The notes under the pieces were generated by a model. That model had not been told where the DNA came from, ran no database searches, and saw nothing but the letters and a program-made list of their open reading frames with translations. Made by a program: the position numbers and the translations under genes. A DNA stretch of 19,349 bases from an uncultured bacterium (GTDB lineage Bacteria > CAIJMQ01): positions 19,484-38,832 of the forward strand of contig CAZNJA010000008.1 in NCBI GenBank assembly GCA_964573245.1, written 5' to 3'. Shown piece by piece: positions 1,443 through 18,867 of the stretch; within the stretch, counting starts at the first letter, position 1, and each line of letters starts with the position of its first letter.

Positions 1443-2642
1443 TTATTTAATCACTTCACTGACAACGCCAGCGCCCACAGTATGGCCGCCTTCTCTTATA
1501 GCAAACCTTAATCCTTTTTCCATCGCTATCGGCGCTATCAGTTTCACATCCATCATTATGTTGTCCCCAGGCATTACCATTTCTACGTCTTTGGGCAGTG
1601 TCGCTGTGCCGGTCACGTCTGTGGTCCTGAAATAGAATTGCGGCCTGTATCCAGAGAAAAACGGTGTGTGTCTGCCCCCTTCTTCTTTTGTCAGTATGTA
1701 TACTTGGCCTTTGAATTCGCTATGCGGGGTTATGCTGCCGGGCGCTGCCAGCACTTGGCCTCTTGATACGTCGTCTTTTTCTACTCCTCTAAGCAGAACT
1801 CCCACATTGTCCCCAGCTTCGCCGTAGTCAAGGATTTTCCTGAACATTTCTATGCCTGTTGCTACTGTTTTCTTTATGTCTAAGCTTAAGCCGACTATGT
1901 CTATGTCATCACCTGTTTTTATTTTGCCTCGTTCTATTCTGCCGGTTACTACCGTTCCCCTTCCGGTTATCGTAAAGATGTCTTCTATCGCCATCAGAAA
2001 TGGTTTGTCGGTTTCCCGTTTGGGGCTGGGAATGTAGGAGTCTACGGCATCAAGTAGTTCGTAGACGCTTTTGCACTCGGCGCTTGCTACATCAGCAGAT
2101 TGGATGCATTTTAGGGCACTGCCCTTTATTATCGGTATTTCGTCACCGGGAAATTCGTATTTCTTTAATAGGTCCCGTACTTCTAACTCTACCAGCTCTA
2201 ATAGCTCGGGATCTGTTACTTGGTCGGTTTTGTTTAGGTATACTACCATTGCAGGCACTCCTACTTGCCTTGCAAGAAGGATGTGTTCTCGTGTCTGCGG
2301 CATCGGCCCGTCTGCTGCTGATACTACCAGTATCGCACCGTCCATTTGCGCCGCGCCGGTTATCATGTTTTTTATGTAGTCGGCATGACCGGGACAATCT
2401 ATATGCGCATAATGTCGTTTATCTGTCTCGTATTCTATGTGCGCGATGTTGATTGTTAATCCACGCTCTTTTTCTTCCGGCGCTTTGTCGATTTCGTCTA
2501 CTGTGAATTCTTTGTCTGTCAGTCCCTTCTTCGACAAAACTTTTGTTATTGCTGAGGTCAATGTTGTCTTGCCATGGTCTACATGCCCTATCGTACCTAT
2601 GTTTATATGCGGCTTCTTTCTCTCAAATTTCTCCTTTGCCAT
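1443..2642 (-). CDS. tuf: Elongation factor Tu (copy downstream of fusA)
   Basis: [60 protein letters not shown] upstream. Confidence 0.99.
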
Positions 2643-5637: not shown

Positions 5638-6006
5638 TTATCCTTTCTTGGTTCCATATTTAGAACGGGATTTTTTTCTATTTTCTGTGCCCCCCGCATC
5701 CAATTTTCCTCGAACTATATGATATCTTACCCCAGGCAAATCTTTAACTCTTCCGCCTCTAACAAGCACAATAGAATGCTCTTGCAGATTATGCCCTTCT
5801 CCGGGTATGTAGGCGGATATCTCTTTACCCGTAATTAAACGAACTTTAGCAACTTTTCTTAGTGCTGAATTCGGTTTCTTAGGAGTCATAGTGAAAACTC
5901 TCGTGCAAACTCCCCTTCTTAACGGAGAAAGTCCCAATGCTGGAGCTTTGCTTTTTCTTTTAAGGCTTTTTCTACCTTTTTTTACTAATTGATTAAGTGT
6001 CGGCAT
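5638..6006 (-). CDS. rpsL: 30S ribosomal protein S12
   Basis: [48 protein letters not shown] inside the 3' end of rpoBC. Confidence 0.99.
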
Positions 6007-9000
6007 TTTTTACCACCTCAATTTCCCTGTATTTTTTTAATCCTGTTCCTGCAGGGATTAGTTTACCAATCATTAAGTTTTCTTTCAAGCCTTTTAGTTC
6101 ATCTTTCCTACCGAAAATGGCAGACCTCGTCAAAACTCTCGGAGTCTCCTGAAACGAAGCCGCAGATATAAATGATGGAGAAGCCAAGGAAGCTTTAGTG
6201 ATTCCCAAAACAAGAGGGCGTCCTTTTGCCGGTTTACCACCGGAAGAAACAACTTTTTCATTTTCTTTCTGAAAGTCCGACTTTTCCATTTGTTCTGCCC
6301 ATAAGAAAGACGTATCTCCGGGGTCTTCTATCTGAACTTTCATAAGCATTTGTCTAATAATAATCTCTATATGCTTGTCGTTGATTCTTACTCCTTGCAA
6401 ACGATAAACTTCTTGTATTTCATTGAGAAGATATTGTTGCAGTTTTCTCTCCCCTTCAATTCGGAGTATTTCCTGAATAACGGCAGGACCATCAGTTAAC
6501 TTTTGCCCGGATGCAACCCAATCCCCTACATCCACTTCAATATGTTTACCATGCGGGACTACATATCTTCTTGTTTCATTCGGACCTTCAATGACAATAT
6601 CCCGAATATTACCCTCCATAATAATTTCTTTAACATGTCCGTCTATTTCTGTCACAATAGCGGGATTTTTGGGCTTTCTGGCTTCAAACAACTCTGCTAT
6701 TCTAGGAAGCCCTCCCGTAATATCCGTTGCCTTCACAACTTCACGAGGAGTTTTCGCAAGGAGTGCCCCAATTCCTACATGTGCATTCTCGTTAATTGTT
6801 ATATGTGCATTTGTAGGCAAAGGATAATACCTCGCATTGCCAAAGTCGTCCCCGCCTGCCGAATCTTGACGGGCAGGTCTTACTATTATTTGTGGATGTA
6901 ATGCTCCCCTATGCTCTACAACAACTTTTTCTCTAATATTGGTCTCCCGATTCAATTCTTCTCTCATCGTTAGACCTTTAATAATATCTTTGAATTCAAC
7001 CTTCCCTTTAATTTCAGAAAGCAACGGACGAGTGTATGGATCCCAACGAGATATAGTCTCTTTTGCCTTCACTCTTTGTCCATCGTTTACTTCAAGGACA
7101 CTTCCTACATTTATAGAATAAGTTTCTATTTTATTTGCTTCCTCATCTTCCAATAAGATATTGCCATTTCTGTTCAAAACTATCAATTTCCCATCGCTGT
7201 TTTTCGTTACATTTAAATTCTTAAATCTCACAATACCATCTGATTGAGCAGTATAATGCGATTCTCCAACTATTCTTGAAGCAGTGCCCCCTATATGGAA
7301 AGTTCTAAGTGTAAGTTGAGTCCCAGGTTCGCCGATTGACTGAGCCGCCATAATTCCGACCGCTTGACCTAAAGCAACCCTTTTGCCTGTAGCCAAATCT
7401 TTGCCATAACATTTCGCGCAAATGCCATTCTTACTTTGACATGTTAAAACCGATCGAATGGAAACTTCTTCTATGCCTGCCTCTTCAATTGCATCCGCAA
7501 TTTCTTCGGTTATTTCATCGCCAGCTCTCACGATAACCTCATCCAATAAAAGCAATTTTATGTCATCTGTTGCAGTCCTTCCGATAATTCTTTCTTTAAG
7601 AGAAATGAAATTTCTGCCACCTAATTCTAATGGTCTTACAGTTATTCCATTGACAGTACCACAATCTTCCTCCGTCACTATTACGTTTTGAGCAACGTCT
7701 ACCAATCTTCTGGTCAAATAACCTGCTTGAGCAGTCTTCAAAGCGGTGTCGGCTAATCCCTTTCTCCCTCCATGCGTCGAAATGAAATACTCCAGAACAG
7801 ACAAACCTTCTCTAAAGTTAGTAGTGATCGGGAATTCAATAATTTCCCCCACAGCTCCAGTTAATTGTTTGCGCGGACGAGCTATCAATCCTCTCATGCC
7901 ACCCAATTGCCTTATCTGTTGAGCACTGCCCCTGGCTTCAGATTCCATTATAAGAAGAACAGGGTTAAATGGATGTTTCTTCAATTCTGAAAACATATTC
8001 TGTGCAACTTCATCGCCAACACGACTCCAAACATCAAGCAGTTTGTTGTATCTTTCCCCATAGGTAATAATTCCTTCGTGATACTGTCTTTCAACTCTTT
8101 CCACTTCTTTACGTGCCTTTTCAATCTTTACCCATTTATCACCTGGAATCTTCACATCAGTTATACTTATGGAAATGCCTCCCATGGTTGCATAGTGAAA
8201 ACCAAGTCCCTTTAAATTGTCAAGCAACGCGCAAGTAGCATCTTTCCCAAATCGTTTGATATAGGAATCGACAAAAGAAGATAATTTACTTTTTGTCATT
8301 CCTTCATTTGCAAACTCGGAACCGTCGGGCAAAACTTCATTAAAAATAGCTCTGCCCACGGTAGTTTTCAGTTTGTTGTTTTTAACAGTCGGCATAAAAC
8401 GTTCGGGGACTGTTAATAAAATTGGCGTATGCAGTTTTATTTCTCCCAATTCATACGCCATCTTAGCTTCTTCTGTGCTCGAGAAAAATCTCATGTCTTT
8501 TTCTTTAACCGATTGCCCGGCTGTATCCATTTTCGTAAGATAATACAATCCCAACACCATATCTTGAGACGGAAGCAATATCGGAGAGCCGTCAGAAGGG
8601 CGAAACAGATTATTTGTAGACAGCATAAGCATTTGCGCTTCAAGAAGCGTTTCCATAAATAGAGGTACGTGGACACTCATCGTGTCCCCGTCAAAATCGG
8701 CGCCGAAAGCAGCACACACCATAGGATGAACTTTTATCGCCTTACTCTCTGTAAGTTTTGGTCTAAAAGCTTGAATCCCCAATCTATGCAAAGTGGGCGC
8801 CCGATTTAAAAGTACAAAGTGGTTCCTAACTACTTCCGACAACGCTTCCCATACTTCTACTGTGCGTCTTTCTATTAGTTTTTTACCTGCTTTTATAGTA
8901 TGGAAATAGCCCTTTTCCTTTAGATATCTGATTATAAAGGGTTGGAATAATTCCAGAGCCATCTCTTTGGGAATACCGCATTCGTCTAATTTCAACTTTG

Positions 9001-12000
9001 GGTCTACAACAATTACAGACCTACCTGAATAATCAACTCTTTTACCGAGAAGGTTTTGTCTGAAACGCCCTTGTTTGCCGCCAAGAGTATCAGCCAAAGA
9101 TTTTAGAGGTCTTCCTTGAGTTCCGCCCACAACAACTCTTCCTCTTCTGCCATTATCAAAAAGCGCATCAACAGCTTCCTGTAACATTCTTTTTTCATTT
9201 CTCAAAATTATTTCAGGCGCGTCAAGTTCTATCAACCTCTTAAGCCTATTGTTTCTATTGATAACTCTGCGGTATAAATCATTTAAATCCGAACTCGCAA
9301 AACCGCCTTTGTCAAGAGGAACTAATGGGCGCAAGTTTGGCGGAATAACAGGAATTCTATCCAAAATCATCCAATCGGGAGAATTACCCGAAGTTATAAA
9401 CGCCTCTACTATTTTTCGCCTTTTGTTTATTTTTCTTCTTGTCGATTGAGACGAAGTGCCTTGCTCTTTTTTCTGCAATTCATCTCGTAATTTTTCTAAG
9501 TTTAGTTCCTGCAATAAACGTTTTAAAGCAGGGGCTCCCATTCCTACTTCAAAACTATCACCATATTTTTGTATATATTCTTCGAGTTCCGAGTCGGTTA
9601 GGATTTGTTGCCTTTCCAAAGGAGTTTTACCCGGCTTAAAAACAACCCAAGAATCATAATAAATAAGTTTTTCCAGATTAGGAAGTGTCATATCCAAAAG
9701 TGTTCCTATCACAGAAGGTATAACTCTAAACATCCATATGTGCGCCACAGGAGTGATAAGTTCTATATGTCCCATTCTCTCGCGTCTTACTTTCGACTCT
9801 GTTACCTCAACACCGCATCTGTCACAAACAACGCCTTTATGTTTTATTTTTTTGTATTTACCACAATAACATTCCCAATCTTTGGTTGGACCAAATATTC
9901 TTTCGCAGAAAAGTCCACCTTTCTCAGCTCTGAAAGTGCGGTAATTTACGGTTTCGGGTTTTTTCACTTCACCTTTGGACCAAGATCTTATCAATTGCGG
10001 CGAAGCTAATCCCAACGCTATACTTTTTATTTCGGAAGCTTCGTTTTTTCTTTCTTTATTTAACCACTGCCAACTACTGCTATCCCATGTAGATTCCTTG
10101 TCCTTCTCTATTTTGAAATCAAGACAAAGCCCCTGCAGTTCTTTTACTAAGACATTAAAAGATTCGGGAATACCTGAATTTAAAGTGTTCTCGCCTTTAA
10201 CAATTGCCTCATAAGCCCTAGTTCTTCCTTCTATATCATCGCTTTTTACAGTCAAGGTCTCTTGTAAAGTATGAGCAGCCCCATAGGATTCCAAAGCCCA
10301 AACTTCCATTTCTCCAAATCTTTGCCCTCCCATTCGAGCTTTACCTCCCAAGGGCTGTTGGGTAATTAAAGAATATGGACCTATAGATCGGGCATGAATT
10401 TTATCTTCGACTAAATGATCAAGTTTAAGCAAATATATATAACCTACGGTTACCCTTTGGTCGAACCGCTCCCCAGTTCTGCCATCAAACAAAACCGTTT
10501 TTCCGTCTTCTGGTAAATTGGCTTCTTTTAAACAATTTTTGATTTCTTCCTCTGTTGCTCCATTAAATACTGGTGTTACGGCCTCAAACCCCAAAACCTT
10601 TGCCGCCCAGCCAAGATGTGTTTCGAGAAGTTGTCCTAAATTCATCCTCGAAGGAACACCCAACGGATTTAAAACAACATCTACCGGCGTTCCATCGGAA
10701 AGATACGGCATATCTTCTTCAGGAAGAACTTTGGCGATAACGCCTTTATTCCCATGACGGCCAGAAAGCTTGTCCCCTTCTTGAAGTTGTCTTTTGCTGG
10801 CTACATATACCTTTACTAATTTAATGACTCCCGGGGACAGTTCTTCCACCTGAAGATAATTTTTGATCTCCTGCGCAGCCTCTTTTTCTATAATCTTCTT
10901 TCTCTCCGCGAACTCCTCCCGATAATTACGCACTCTTTCGTTTATTTTAGCGTTCTTTACCTTTATACTGCCAAAGGCTTTTAAATCAAGCCGGCTTAAT
11001 AAAGCGGCAGACAATACTTCCGATGCTCTTATTTGTATGGAATCAGTACCTTTAGTTGAATTTTTTTGATGAGCAAGTTTAATCTTAACAGCCTGCTTAC
11101 ATTTTGTACCTTTAAGAATCTCTACGATTTTATTTAATGTTGCCCTCTGCAAACTTTCCAACAAGGTATCCTTTTTTCTCTTGATGGACTGGATTTCAGA
11201 AGAACTGTCTTTTAACCGTTTTTTATCTTCTTCTTCTCTGGAAAATATCTTCGTATCTATTACAACCCCCTCAGTTCCAGGCGGGACTTTTAAGGAAGTA
11301 TTAAGGACATCTCCGGCTTTTTCTCCAAATATTGCTCTAAGCAATTTTTCCTCCGAAGTAAGAACAGACTCGCCCTTCGGGGTAATTTTGCCCACAAGGA
11401 TATCTCCAGCGTTTACATAAGCACCTACTCTTACTACACCGTCGCTATCTAAATCTTTCAAAGCATCTTCGGAAACGTTAGGTATATCTTGAGTAATTTC
11501 TTCTTTGCCTAACTTCGTTTCTCTGCACTCAACTTCAAATTCCTCTATGTGAATTGAAGTATATGCGTCTTCTTTAATTATTTTTTCCGAAACCAAAATA
11601 GCATCTTCAAAGTTATATCCTTCCCAAGGCATGAAAGCTACTAAAGCATTTCTGCCCAAAGCCAACTTTCCGTTCTTTGTAGCAGACCCATCGGCTAAAA
11701 TATCTCCTTTCTTTACCCTTTGTCCTACATTCACAATGGGTTTTTGATGAATACACGTGGATTGGTTTGACCTTACAAAATTCCTCAGAGGGTAATAATC
11801 AAGCTCATCCAAAAGGAAGTCTTCTGTTTTGGAAGATGAACTTGCTCTCACTATTATACTTTCGCCCGAAACACTATCTACAACACCATCTTTTTTTGCC
11901 AAAACAGTAGCACCTGAATCTTTTGCAACTATATGCTCCATTCCAGTTTGGACCAAAGGAGGTTCGGGATTAACAAGAGGAACAGCCTGTCTTTGCATAT

Positions 12001-13927
12001 TAGAACCCATTAAAGCCCTATTGGAATCATCATGCTCCAAAAATGGTATTAAAGAAGCAGATGTAGAAACCGTTTGAATTGGGTCTATGTCCATATATTT
12101 AACTTCAGCACTAGGCATAGAGTGGTAATCACCCTTGTATCTTGCCAGAATTCTATCGTCGGTTAAATATCCTTTAGCATCTAGTGAAGCATTAGCTTGA
12201 GCTATAATAAACTTATCCTCTTCGTCTGCTGTAAGATAATCTACTGTGTTAGTAACTTTTTTACTCTCTACTTTTCTATAGGGCGCTTCCAATAATCCTA
12301 GACTGTTTATTTGCGCGTAATTGGCCAATGAGGTTATCAATCCAATATTTTGTCCTTCGGGAGTTTCTATCGGACAAATACGTCCGTAATGAGTTGGATG
12401 AACGTCTCTTACTTCTATCCCTGCCCGTTCCCTGGTCAAACCTTCAGGACCCAATGCGGACAATCTTCTTTTGTGCGTCAATTCAGCCAACGGATTTGTT
12501 TGGTCCATAAATTGGGAAAGTTGCGATGAGGTAAAAAATTCCATCAAAGAACTATTTATAAGACGAGGATTCACCAAAGTATGAGGCATTAAATCCTCTG
12601 CCTTTCCCATAAGCAATCTTTCGTGAATTGAACGAGCAAGTTTGATGAAAGAGGGACGAAGTTGACTTCCCATAAGTTCACCGATACTTCTAATTCTGCG
12701 ATTTCCGAGGCGGTCAATATCATCCACACCAGATTTACCCATTTGCAAATTAATTAGTTCTTTTACCACTGCAACTATATCGTCAATAGTCAAAACCCTC
12801 TTGGATGTGGGGATATCCAAATTCAATCTAGAATTTAATCTGTGTCTGCCAATTCTCCCTAAATCAAATCTCGCTTTGTCAAATAAAATTCCGCGCAAAT
12901 AAGTTTCAGCGGTATCCGACTCAAAAGGCGTCCCTGATCTTATACGCGAATAAATCTGAGTTAAAGCCTCTTCTTTGGTTTGAGTGCGGTCTTTCCTGAG
13001 GGTATTTATTATCAAAGCGCTGGAATCTTTATCTTTTATGATTTTTACTTTATTTATGCTGAAAGAGGAAAGAGTTTTAAGTAGAAGGAGAGAAATTTCC
13101 TGCTTACTTTCGGCTATTTTCTGGCCTATTTTCGCATCGACCACATCTTCAGCCAATATTTGTCCTATTAGTTTTTTATCGAAACTTCTTTGAGATAAAT
13201 TTATTTCTTCCGTTTCGCAAAAAAGCTTGATTATACCATCATCTTTTGGATAGCCTAAAGCCCTGAAAATCACTGTGCCCAACATTCTCCTGCGCGGACC
13301 TATTACACCATACAAGAGATCGTTGTTATCAGTTTCAAATTCCATCCAAGTGCCCCTGTCAGGAACTATTCTGGCTACAAAAATCTCTTTGCCTTTTTTC
13401 TGACCGCCCGATTCGAAAAATGCTCCAGGAGAACGATGTAGTTGACAAGTGATAACTCTTTCTATGCCATTTATAATAAAAGTCCCTTGTTGAGTCATGA
13501 GAGGAAAATCGCAGAGATAAACCTCTTCTTCTCTGATACTTTCTATCTCTAATCCTTTCTTGATTTCGGTATTTCTTGCAGACTTGCGATTGAAAGATAT
13601 AGGAACAGGGTTTTTATAAATGATAAGTTTCAATTTTAATTTTAAAGGAACCGAATAGGTAATTCCTCTTCTTATACATTCTGTGACACTATAACGGGAA
13701 TTTCCAATAGTATAATTTGCAAATTCAAGAGAAAACTTTCCGTTACTGGCAACAATTGGAAATAATTCACCAATAAGAGACTGCAACCCTTCATTTTTCC
13801 TTTTTAAAGGGGGTACATCCGGTTGAAGGAAAGAACTAAAAGATTGATTCTGTATCTGGACCAAATTGGGCAATCCCATCACCGGGGGAATCTTTTTAAA
13901 ATTTCTTACATTGGTAGATGTAAGCAT
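5993..13927 (-). CDS. rpoBC: Fused DNA-directed RNA polymerase subunits beta and beta' (single ORF, ~2644 aa)
   Basis: Beta motifs ([53 protein letters not shown]) run in frame into beta' motifs ([13 protein letters not shown], Zn-finger [22 protein letters not shown], x[16 protein letters not shown]). SD GGGAGG at 13939-13944 supports a start at ATG 13927 or TTG 13933 rather than 13981. Junction at ~10030-10110. Confidence 0.93.
6851..6877. repeat. 27-nt GC-rich palindrome inside the beta' coding region (encodes PARQDSAGG)
   Basis: cccg-cctgcc-gaatcttgacg-ggcagg; 19/27 GC; exactly 9 codons in frame; arms resemble the intergenic cctgcc..gcagg copies at 13955 and 14050. Confidence 0.55.
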
Positions 13928-13954
13928 ACGCAACTTTTCCTCCCTTTTTACATA

Positions 13955-13972
13955 CCTGCCTAAGCAGGCAAA
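13955..13972. repeat. CCTGCCTAAGCAGGCAAA palindromic repeat, copy 1
   Basis: Exact 18-nt direct repeat of 14050-14067; just upstream of the rpoB SD. Confidence 0.8.
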
Positions 13973-14046
13973 TTTAATCAAAAAACCGATATCACATTAA
14001 ATCCTCTCTTACTAAACAATAAAGAAAGGGGAAATTTTAGAAACAC

Positions 14047-14067
14047 TTGCCTGCCTAAGCAGGCAAA
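14047..14067. repeat. CCTGCCTAAGCAGGCAAA palindromic repeat, copy 2
   Basis: ttgcctgc-ctaa-gcaggcaa, a perfect 8-bp stem with a 4-nt loop, ~20 nt downstream of the rplL stop. Confidence 0.8.
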
Positions 14068-14086: not shown

Positions 14087-14542
14087 CTACTTGATTTCTA
14101 CTACTGCGCCAACAGCTTCCAATTTTTTCTTCATCTCTTCTGCTTCTTCTTTGGAAGCATTTTCTTTTACGGTTTTCGGCGCTCCATCAACTAAGTCTTT
14201 AGCTTCTTTCAATCCAAGATTTGTGAAACTTCTTATTTCTTTTATCACTTGAATTTTTTTATCTCCCGTAGAAGAAAGAATTACGGTAAAGGATGTTTTC
14301 TCTTCTTCAGCAGCCTGTTGCTGGGTTGATTGAGAACCAGCCGAAGCAACTACTTGAGTAACAGATTGAACTGCAGAAACACCGAATTCAGTTTCTAAAT
14401 CTTTCACTAATTCGGAAAGCTCAATAACTGTCAGGTTCTTAATCCCCCCCATAATTTCTTCTTTACTTAATTTAACCGTAGTGGATTTGGATTGTTCTTT
14501 GGGTTTTGACTGTTGCTCTTTATCTGTTTCCTTTTTAGCCAT
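14087..14542 (-). CDS. rplL: 50S ribosomal protein L7/L12 (N-terminally extended)
   Basis: [62 protein letters not shown] at 14550-14555 favours ATG 14542 over 14557. Confidence 0.96.
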
Positions 14543-15089
14543 CTTTGTTCCCTCCATCTTGAACGTCCCGATGTTTTTCGGAACTATTTTTAATTGAATT
14601 TATCACGTTCACCAGACCAAATATCATCTGGTGCAAATAATTAACTAAACCTGATACGGGAGCGTTTAAATCACCAACCATATTGGTCAATAACTCGATT
14701 TTACTTGGAAGAGTGGATATCTTTTTTAAATTTTCATCGCTGACTATTTCACCTTCCAACACACCCCCTTTCAATATTAAAGCCTGATGCTCTTTCGAAA
14801 AATTTACTAATGTTTTTATGAGCGGTATTGGATCTTCGGGTAAAAATGCAATCGCACAAGGACCTGCAATGAACTGTTGAGTCTCAATCTTATTGCTTTT
14901 ATCCATGGCTTTAAGAGCTATCGTGTTTTTCACTACTTTGTATTCCCCATTTTGTTCCCTTGTTAATTGTTTAATGCTGGACATTTCTTGAGCGTTTAAA
15001 CCCTGGAAATTCGTAAATATTACAGATTTCAAGTTGCTCAATTTGTCAACTAAAAAATCTAAATTCTCTTGTTTGGTTTTTTTATCCAT
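14535..15089 (-). CDS. rplJ: 50S ribosomal protein L10
   Basis: [41 protein letters not shown]; lies between rplA and rplL. Confidence 0.95.
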
Positions 15090-15104
15090 GAAATTCTTAC
15101 ACCT

Positions 15105-15812
15105 TTATACGTTGGAAATATCCATGAACTGCTTGACATCTAACCTTATCGATGGACTCATTGAAGTAGACATATATACCTTGTTTATATAGGAACCTTT
15201 AGAAGCATGAGGTTTTCCTTTTATTACTGCTTTTATCAAAGTAATTATGTTTTCCTTTAAATCAGAAATAGAAAAAGAACTCTTACCTACAACAAGATGC
15301 AAGTTTCCAAACTTATCGTTGCGAAATTCTACTCTGCCCAATTTCATCTCTTTAATAATTTTGCCCAAATCATTGGAAACTGTTCCAGTCTTTGGCGAGG
15401 GCATCAAACCTCTCGGGCCTAAAATTTTCCCTGCCTTAGCCAATTTTTTCATCATATCAGGAGTAGTAACAATAGAATCAAAATCAATCCAACCTTTTTG
15501 TATCTTCTCTATTAGTTCGTCTGTACCCACGAAATCCGCACCCTCTTTTTTAGCATCGTTAGCTTCTTTACCTTCGGCAATAGCCAGAATTCTCACTTTT
15601 TTGCCTATACCTTTCGGCAATGTTACAGCCCCCCTGACTTGCATATTTTGATTGCTCGCGTCAATTCCCAATTTGACAATCAAGTCCACAGTTTCATCAA
15701 ACTTAGTTTTTGGGCTTTTTTTAATTATGTCAATAGCCTCTTCAAGAAAATACAGTTTATTTGAGTCTATCTTTTGGTTTATCTCTTTATATCTTTTACT
15801 TCTTTTCTTCAT
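15105..15812 (-). CDS. rplA: 50S ribosomal protein L1
   Basis: KFDETVD, VRGAVTLPKGIGK, GKILGPRGLMPSPKTGTV, STSMSPSI. Confidence 0.98.
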   Translation of the reverse strand: MKKRSKRYKEINQKIDSNKLYFLEEAIDIIKKSPKTKFDETVDLIVKLGIDASNQNMQVRGAVTLPKGIGKKVRILAIAEGKEANDAKKEGADFVGTDELIEKIQKGWIDFDSIVTTPDMMKKLAKAGKILGPRGLMPSPKTGTVSNDLGKIIKEMKLGRVEFRNDKFGNLHLVVGKSSFSISDLKENIITLIKAVIKGKPHASKGSYINKVYMSTSMSPSIRLDVKQFMDISNV

Positions 15813-15860
15813 AAAATTTCCCGCATGGCTATAACCTAACCCATAGTTTTCAAAAGTGTG

Positions 15861-15889
15861 ATTATATATGTTTACAAAAAAAAATCCAA
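15861..15889 (-). promoter_or_regulatory. Putative sigma70 promoter upstream of rplA
   Basis: TTGGAT (15889-15884), 17-nt spacer, TATAAT (15866-15861). Confidence 0.55.
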
Positions 15890-15950
15890 CTGTTTATCCG
15901 TATTGTATATATCTAACTTGCTCCTCGTCATATTTCCTTTTCTTCTTTTA

Positions 15951-16388
15951 CTAAGAAGCACCACCTGTTTCAACTTCTATGCCCATGTTTCTAGCGGTGC
16001 CTTCTATTATTTTCACAGCCTTAGAAATATCGGGAGCATTTAAATCTTTCATCTTAATTTTTGCAATCTCTTCCAATTGTTTCCTTGTAACCTTTCCAAC
16101 TTTATTCTTATTAGGTTCAGACGAAGCCTTAGCTATTCCGACTGCCTTCTTAAGCAAAACCGCAGCAGGAGGAGATTTTGTGATAAAAGTAAATGTCCTA
16201 TCCTCGTATATGCTAATTTCAACAGGAATTATAAGCCCATCTTTACCTTGAGTTGCTTTATTGAACTGCTGGCAAAATTGCATGATATTAACCCCATGTT
16301 GTCCCAATGCAGGTCCAACGGGAGGAGAAGGATTTGCCGCACCCGCTGAAATCTGTAATTTCACCTTAGTCTTAATGTTTTTAGCCAT
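15951..16388 (-). CDS. rplK: 50S ribosomal protein L11
   Basis: [47 protein letters not shown]. Confidence 0.99.
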
Positions 16389-17667: not shown

Positions 17668-18867
17668 TCATTTAATCACTTCACTGACAACGCCAGCGCC
17701 CACAGTATGGCCGCCTTCTCTTATAGCAAACCTTAATCCTTTTTCCATCGCTATCGGCGCTATCAGTTTCACATCCATCATTATGTTGTCCCCAGGCATT
17801 ACCATTTCTACGTCTTTGGGCAGTGTCGCTGTGCCGGTCACGTCTGTGGTCCTGAAATAGAATTGCGGCCTGTATCCAGAGAAAAACGGTGTGTGTCTGC
17901 CCCCTTCTTCTTTTGTCAGTATGTATACTTGGCCTTTGAATTCGCTATGCGGGGTTATGCTGCCGGGCGCTGCCAGCACTTGGCCTCTTGATACGTCGTC
18001 TTTTTCTACTCCTCTAAGCAGAACTCCCACATTGTCCCCAGCTTCGCCGTAGTCAAGGATTTTCCTGAACATTTCTATGCCTGTTGCTACTGTTTTCTTT
18101 ATGTCTAAGCTTAAGCCGACTATGTCTATGTCATCACCTGTTTTTATTTTGCCTCGTTCTATTCTGCCGGTTACTACCGTTCCCCTTCCGGTTATCGTAA
18201 AGATGTCTTCTATCGCCATCAGAAATGGTTTGTCGGTTTCCCGTTTGGGGCTGGGAATGTAGGAGTCTACGGCATCAAGTAGTTCGTAGACGCTTTTGCA
18301 CTCGGCGCTTGCTACATCAGCAGATTGGATGCATTTTAGGGCACTGCCCTTTATTATCGGTATTTCGTCACCGGGAAATTCGTATTTCTTTAATAGGTCC
18401 CGTACTTCTAACTCTACCAGCTCTAATAGCTCGGGATCTGTTACTTGGTCGGTTTTGTTTAGGTATACTACCATTGCAGGCACTCCTACTTGCCTTGCAA
18501 GAAGGATGTGTTCTCGTGTCTGCGGCATCGGCCCGTCTGCTGCTGATACTACCAGTATCGCACCGTCCATTTGCGCCGCGCCGGTTATCATGTTTTTTAT
18601 GTAGTCGGCATGACCGGGACAATCTATATGCGCATAATGTCGTTTATCTGTCTCGTATTCTATGTGCGCGATGTTGATTGTTAATCCACGCTCTTTTTCT
18701 TCAGGCGCTTTGTCGATTTCGTCTACCGTGAATTCTTTGTCTGTCAATCCCTTCTTCGACAAAACTTTTGTTATTGCCGATGTCAATGTTGTCTTGCCGT
18801 GGTCTACGTGCCCTATCGTACCTATGTTTATATGCGGTTTCTTTCTCTCAAATTTCTCTTTTGCCAT
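17668..18867 (-). CDS. tuf: Elongation factor Tu (copy downstream of tRNA-Thr)
   Basis: Protein identical to 1443-2642; TGA stop. Confidence 0.99.

Follow-up and report, generated by a model that had tools for sequence, protein, structure and literature searches.

Natural rpoB-rpoC fusions, in which RNA polymerase's beta and beta' subunits are encoded by one gene, are named for Helicobacteraceae and Wolbachia in an excerpt of PMC7483510, and an excerpt of a bioRxiv preprint (10.1101/2021.11.05.467461) describes the rpoB and rpoC genes as 'occasionally fused'. Our full-text literature search found no fusion report outside Helicobacteraceae and Wolbachia. Here we describe rpoBC, a fused gene in a stretch of 19,349 nucleotides (nt) from an uncultured bacterium (GTDB lineage Bacteria; CAIJMQ01; GenBank assembly GCA_964573245.1, contig CAZNJA010000008.1, positions 19,484 to 38,832), hereafter the window, along with its occurrence in related and unrelated genomes and an unusual substitution in its catalytic motif.

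The window gene shares with the Helicobacter/Wolinella type (NF007172, PRK09603; profile of 2890 positions) a single open reading frame (ORF) in which beta precedes beta' and the same ends are joined, and with the Wolbachia type (NF011417, PRK14844) the same beta::beta' architecture. However, the window protein falls below the cut-offs of both NCBIfam models, scoring 2718.5 bits against 5372 for NF007172 and 2624.9 bits against 4632 for NF011417. The fused locus of Helicobacter muridarum (L068) is a single ORF of about 2890 codons, so that the window protein is about 250 residues shorter, and it lacks a 7-residue insertion in a beta' loop that the window protein possesses. Phylogenies were reconstructed from beta plus beta' with the linker columns removed, unless they are stated to be beta'-only, and all are unrooted. 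In the beta plus beta' trees the Campylobacterota clade (L068, G054 and G220) sits near Pseudomonadota and far from the window clade, which is itself far from all Pseudomonadota rows; no Wolbachia sequence is among the tree rows. The family scores and three trees thus bear out the sequence-only reading, an earlier interpretation made without database searches, in its view that these proteins resemble neither Helicobacteraceae nor Wolbachia, and they support a fusion that would be independent of both.

One open reading frame for beta and beta'

The ORF listing of the window gives a single ORF at 5993..13981 (-), with 2662 amino acids (aa) counted from an upstream TTG; residue numbers used here follow this listing, with that TTG as residue 1. 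Reading from the ATG at 13927, which is residue 19 of the listed ORF, yields 2644 aa and 295.9 kDa, and this fits the extent of 5993-13927 and the product of ~295 kDa proposed from the sequence alone. The database gene call for the same protein (P0002) has 2628 aa and begins at a later Met. The parts of the gene are as follows.

5993..13927 (-): rpoBC coding sequence; start codon ATG at 13927, alternative in-frame start TTG at 13933, 5 nt downstream of GGGAGG; stop codon at 5995..5993
10106..13927 (-): beta (RpoB) module, residues 19-1292; TIGR02013, 1713.6 bits against a cut-off of 801.15
10034..10105 (-): 24-residue linker, residues 1293-1316
5996..10033 (-): beta' (RpoC) module, residues 1317-2662; TIGR02386, 1658 bits against a cut-off of 963.5
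9812..9871 (-): beta' N-terminal zinc-binding cysteine motif, 20 residues, intact as read from the sequence
8684..8704 (-): catalytic motif GADFDGD (usually NADFDGD), Asp triad intact; Gly codon GGC at 8704..8702, residue 1760
7835..7882 (-): beta' loop of 16 residues with a 7-residue insertion relative to most bacteria, from the alignment

Eleven Pfam families follow one another along the protein, namely Rpb2 domains 1, 2, 3, 45, 6 and 7 and then Rpb1 domains 1-5, with the Rpb2 domains (six families) all lying within residues 39-1292 and the Rpb1 domains (five families) all within residues 1316-2598. The cysteine motif near the beta' N-terminus is known for its role in zinc binding. A frame of 2662 codons that holds two full families in the right order is not a product of chance. 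The beta C-terminus, the 24-residue linker and the beta' N-terminus (...GEVKKPET) are read through in one frame with zero stops, and the translation matches the junction text from which the sequence-only reading had concluded that no stop separates the subunits. When the rpoBC frame was checked for a stop, a frameshift or a plausible internal start, none was found; the first in-frame ATG past the linker is at residue 1403 (RRERMGH), just where that reading had placed it. In comparison with an ordinary two-gene rpoB-rpoC locus, all domains are present, rplKAJL lies upstream and the TIGR02013 and TIGR02386 cut-offs are passed, whereas the stop, spacer and start that ordinarily stand between the genes are absent.

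An indel or a miscalled stop in one metagenome bin could also have joined two separate genes, a caveat that the sequence-only reading had itself attached to the junction. The source genome is indeed a bin (1.46 Mb, 110 contigs, 93% complete), and the junction has a low contig depth (about 5 in run X1). However, when a 221-residue query spanning the junction was searched in 40 other genomes, the sister genomes to which that reading had pointed as a comparison proved to be fused as well: all eight same-class genomes (three of the same genus, one more of the same family and four of other families) match the query in one piece and stop-free. Given a contig of sufficient length, their open frames span 2600-2691 aa; two end at contig edges, and the six of these loci that were re-read from fetched DNA are each a single ORF. 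Likewise, 108 of the best 120 database matches to residues 1100-1500, from several sources, are proteins of at least 2200 aa and the other 12 are shorter pieces, in a search that took only proteins of 1464-4659 aa and is no gauge of how frequent unfused relatives are. Many independent protein clusters keep the frame open, and the closest of these proteins (78-95% identity over residues 1100-1500) have a recognisably conserved linker. The linker sequences differ among the assemblies, and hence one systematic error common to all of them is implausible.

The contigs of four sequencing runs (contigs only, not raw reads) were also aligned to 9600..10500. The runs that contain this DNA are salt-marsh and sediment metagenomes, and a look for RNA runs found none for the junction stretch. 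One contig of run X1, possibly the source sample, covers 9854-10500 with zero differences, and contigs of run X2 cover 9898-10048 and 10088-10324, again with zero differences. An indel at the junction had been named beforehand as the observation that would tell against a natural fusion, and no inserted or missing letters were found there in the contigs of the four runs, of which X2, X3 and X6 cover the junction partly. With the frame open in eight of eight relatives and the contigs free of indels, the caveat is resolved in favour of a natural fusion, and an assembly artefact can be regarded as extremely improbable. A profile search of the source genome gave one TIGR02013 match and one TIGR02386 match, both to this ORF, which is therefore the sole rpoB and the sole rpoC of the 93%-complete genome.

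The linker is conserved within the family. Its PESF and ASP anchors are 54 residues apart in the window protein and in the seven database relatives nearest to it (53 in P0010). An aromatic pattern W/F..W.W[LM] (T-W/F...W-x-W-L/M-x-K) is mostly kept in P0003-P0010, which reach down to about 78% identity; G004 and P0010 have lost the first aromatic. Elsewhere in the class the linker is a different one: it is 4-5 residues shorter, and 49-50 residues separate the anchors. The fused rpoBC of other uncultured lineages share the same architecture and have short, variable linkers (34-84 residues between the anchors), but differ in a linker sequence that is specific to each clade and unalignable between clades. 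An AlphaFold2 model covering residues 1100-1660 only (19-row alignment, mean predicted local distance difference test score, pLDDT, of 60.9; unused for distances or fold searches) scores the linker below 50 in pLDDT, places a five-residue helix at WQWLN in it, and reaches a pLDDT of 80-95 in the beta' clamp part. The linker is thus probably, as far as the model indicates, a flexible tether made of the former tails.

We therefore hold it to be very probable that rpoBC is a genuine, inherited in-frame rpoB-rpoC fusion whose product is one chain of ~296 kDa, with the beta C-terminus tethered to the beta' N-terminus. The former beta tail would have been joined to the former beta' head with the loss of the stop codon, the spacer and the start codon. 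An ordinary core RNA polymerase activity would be expected from alpha2, beta::beta' and omega, with the tether only setting the large subunits at 1:1 and making their association intramolecular. The beta C-terminus and beta' N-terminus are adjacent in solved polymerases, and both the engineered fusion in E. coli and the engineered splitting in H. pylori are reportedly tolerated. The window protein would be expected to remain uncleaved and active, and its tether to be close to neutral.

Several points weigh against a single chain. Each of the best 60 of 127 solved-structure matches is a beta chain or a beta' chain on its own, and the beta C-terminal part of the AlphaFold2 model is poor (pLDDT 25-50) and uninformative on the closeness of the two ends. 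Cleavage within the linker after translation may also be compatible with all of the data presented here. Separate beta and beta' could be produced from the fused frame by such proteolysis, for which the predicted flexibility of the linker would be favourable, or by internal initiation at the in-frame TTG/GTG codons at residues 1323, 1330 and 1339. However, none of these codons is preceded by a Shine-Dalgarno sequence at a proper distance, all fall among conserved residues of beta', and the linker is conserved in the family and carries no recognisable protease site. Known fused enzymes, moreover, are reported as single chains. The production of separate subunits is hence quite unlikely, and one tethered beta::beta' chain remains the reading that we prefer.

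Distribution and evolutionary history of the fusion

The sampled relatives of the source genome belong to the same class and then only to the same domain, with no level between, which suggests that the source group is small and isolated. In the junction region, the closest named proteins are those of Candidatus Ratteibacteria (95%) and, loosely, Candidatus Omnitrophica (93%), and Caldiserica is the label that the database gives to the class's other half. It should be noted that these names are depositors' labels and not a placement by this analysis; Ratteibacteria is ranked as a candidate phylum by NCBI.

The occurrence of the fusion was surveyed in 301 genomes at least 80% complete, 293 of them outside the class (229 families), and 282 of these 293 match the junction query. 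Outside the class, and among the matches listed, the junction lies in one piece and is stop-free in at least 13 of the 293 genomes and at least 10 of the 229 families; all 12 of the outside-class fused genomes that were re-read from DNA are single ORFs (the 13th, G095, is not among the 12). A beta'-only query of 146 genomes was matched by 133 genomes outside the class, and 7 of them have the fusion. About 19 further genomes with two matches and apparent frames above 2300 aa were considered and rejected, the beta'-only query giving 1150-1550 aa, and G127 and G050 (beta' frames of 2253 and 2043 aa) were likewise rejected as having separate genes with a long beta'. The fusion is thus fixed in the whole sampled class, and it turns up again in about 4-5% of the sampled bacterial families outside it.

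Two further collections were examined. Among 80 named reference loci, which are biased to same-frame neighbours, include none from the window's clade and give no frequency estimate, 78 have separate genes and two are fused, namely Helicobacter muridarum, the positive control, and a Paceibacterota metagenome-assembled genome (L084). For the beta' part, the best 150 cluster representatives (50% identity), retrieved with no length filter, comprise 10 fused, 133 standalone-like and 7 unjudgeable proteins. Fused database proteins carry the labels Omnitrophica, NPL-UPA2, Aerophobetes, Caldiserica, Puniceicoccales and Magnetobacterium casensis, and for some of them the Joint Genome Institute (JGI) annotation already reads 'subunit beta-beta''. 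Most other fused rpoBC belong to small-genome, uncultured bacteria; genome sizes, with kinship ignored, are 1.0-3.1 Mb for the at least 13 fused genomes outside the class, 0.9-1.9 Mb for the window class and 0.5-9 Mb for the whole sample. A different kind of case is the fused protein P0100 (2812 aa), which is more than 80% identical to the unfused beta plus beta' of Burkholderia anthina (L036), and several more fused proteins have unfused Pseudomonadota all around them in the tree. Such cases look like annotation errors, or like fusions that are recent or strain-level, in well-known groups.

In unfused genomes, rpoB and rpoC are often in frame with each other, kept apart by a short spacer and 1-3 stops, and hence one or a few point changes could fuse the genes. 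That the loss of a stop or a short deletion would suffice fits the many changes between the fused and unfused states on the trees. A FastTree tree of 191 rows requires at least 14 such changes, a tree with 40 more unfused genomes (231 rows, 2525 columns) requires 19, and an IQ-TREE quick search under LG+C20 (63 rows, 1300 columns) requires 12; since the trees are unrooted, gains are indistinguishable from losses.

Since the trees require at least 11-19 state changes, origins would be frequent, and a private, recent and fully independent fusion in this class alone would be in keeping with that count, as it would with a linker that is unalignable with those of the neighbouring fused clades. The neighbours themselves, however, argue otherwise. 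In the 63-row tree the class joins P0015/P0019, a group that is also fused, with a Shimodaira-Hasegawa-like approximate likelihood ratio test (SH-aLRT) support of 99. The next group is a seven-row fused group that includes NPL-UPA2, albeit with weak support (64 in the 63-row tree, 50 in the 231-row tree and 0.95 in a beta'-only tree of 205 rows). In this beta'-only tree, none of the 127 standalone beta' representatives falls inside the assemblage of the window class, P0015/P0019 and NPL-UPA2.

The beta' loop gives a different picture of the relationships further out. The sequence-only reading gave this loop as an example of what sets these proteins apart from the two known groups. The loop is not peculiar to the lineage, and its 7-residue insertion is shared by several phyla: it is present in the class and P0015/P0019 and also in Bacteroidota, Ignavibacteriota, Zixiibacteriota, Gemmatimonadota, Elusimicrobiota-type rows and an Omnitrophica-labelled fused clade, and it is absent from the NPL-UPA2 group and Verrucomicrobiota-type rows. 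This rare indel conflicts with the weak NPL-UPA2 sister placement in the gene tree. A constraint uniting all 29 rows with the insertion was not rejected (iqtree2, LG+G4; difference in log-likelihood 4.4; approximately unbiased test, p 0.44 versus 0.56). In the constrained tree the Omnitrophica-labelled fused clade is next in kinship, with unfused Elusimicrobiota-type genomes beyond it, and the constrained and unconstrained LG+G4 trees each require 11 state changes. On these alignments, the nearest sampled neighbours of the class are fused under either topology, while the sister group differs between the two. Similarity to the query was the basis on which fused rows were selected, however, and hence the sampling favours fused neighbours. 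Since P0015/P0019 and, beyond it, either the NPL-UPA2 group or the Omnitrophica-labelled clade are all fused, an origin confined to this class seems doubtful.

The sequence-only reading had suggested an independent fusion in another lineage. Its separateness from the two known groups holds, but the fusion is neither private nor rare: the window carries a real, inherited, class-wide fusion that is one more case of a known recurrent event. The fixation throughout the class, together with the at least 13 of 293 other genomes, indicates that fusing rpoB and rpoC is a recurrent and apparently easy step and not a curiosity of two groups. To this the window itself contributes one further lineage, a modest gain. 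Fused rpoBC affects gene calling and those marker-gene phylogenies that expect two genes, and it provides studies of assembly and structure with natural single-chain polymerases.

Loss of asparagine from the catalytic motif

The Asn that usually opens the catalytic motif of beta', which we take to be E. coli beta' N458 by the established numbering, is replaced by Gly in the window protein. The Gly is shared by all five genomes of the family and by P0002-P0006, and the next two protein clusters, P0007 and P0008, have Ala, whereas Asn is retained by P0009, P0010, the remaining class members and all other rows, amounting to 221 of the 231 aligned rows. Among the fused rpoBC of uncultured lineages, those that lack the motif Asn are confined to the window family and the two protein clusters closest to it.

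A pattern search for motif variants was made in the same 301 genomes and is blind to codons starting with A (Thr, Ser AGY, Lys, Arg AGR, Ile and Met). Beyond the family it yielded two genes: the main rpoC of G122, which was re-read and has Ala, and a second, divergent beta'-like gene of G281, which has Gly. The remaining xADFDGD hits lie outside rpoC where the position of rpoC is known or was checked, and a few are unplaced. The G281 gene (C22:64147-64443) stands beside a normal rpoC, has 1624 aa with 42% identity over the active-site region and reads GADFDGD. An unrelated standalone beta' representative, P0255, also has Gly at the motif. As the fixed natural state of a sole polymerase, the loss of the motif Asn is rare in the sequences compared here.

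In an excerpt of PMC7862312, the N458S substitution cut the selectivity for nucleoside triphosphates (NTP) over 2'-deoxynucleoside triphosphates (2'-dNTP) only 4-fold, at the binding step, and R425 was the main determinant. As the effect of N458S is only 4-fold, a viable enzyme lacking the motif Asn is plausible. The change from Asn to Gly in the only RNA polymerase of this family is possibly a more interesting lead than the fusion.

A wider reading, which we put forward tentatively and with appreciable doubt, would join the two features: the fusion may be an old shared trait of a multi-phylum uncultured assemblage, and within it the family's sole polymerase may have lost the Asn and have altered ribose contacts. 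The assemblage meant here consists of the Ratteibacteria-labelled class, its P0015/P0019 sister group, and the NPL-UPA2-type and/or Omnitrophica-labelled lineages. If the fusion is such an old shared trait, it would be a rare genomic change with phylogenetic signal.

Operon context and neighbouring genes

The rpoBC gene lies among ribosomal-protein genes on the same strand, and the following features adjoin it.

14087..16388 (-): rplK-rplA-rplJ-rplL, upstream of rpoBC in the usual operon order, named from their translations
14046..14067 (-): terminator- or attenuator-like hairpin TTTGCCTGCTTAGGCAGGCAAG with a T-rich tail, located between rplL and rpoBC
5638..6006 (-): rpsL, with its start ATG 14 nt inside the 3' end of rpoBC

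Because the rpsL ATG is 14 nt within the end of rpoBC, the two genes overlap (5993..6006), and the polymerase gene is directly coupled, with no spacer, to the str operon (rpsL-rpsG-fusA-tuf-rpsJ). Given this overlap and the rplKAJL-rpoBC context, rpoBC is probably transcribed and translated within one long ribosomal-protein and polymerase operon. Two copies of a hairpin-forming sequence, TTTGCCTGCTTAGGCAGG, lie between rplL and the start of rpoBC: the first, at 14046..14067, is the one with the T-rich tail, and the second is at ~13972..13955 (-).

The window also holds two copies of tuf, at 1443..2642 and 17668..18867 (-), which differ by 10 mismatches in 1200 nt and share an identical block of 1033 nt, while their flanks are unrelated. 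An identical block between unrelated flanks is typical of tufA/tufB gene conversion.

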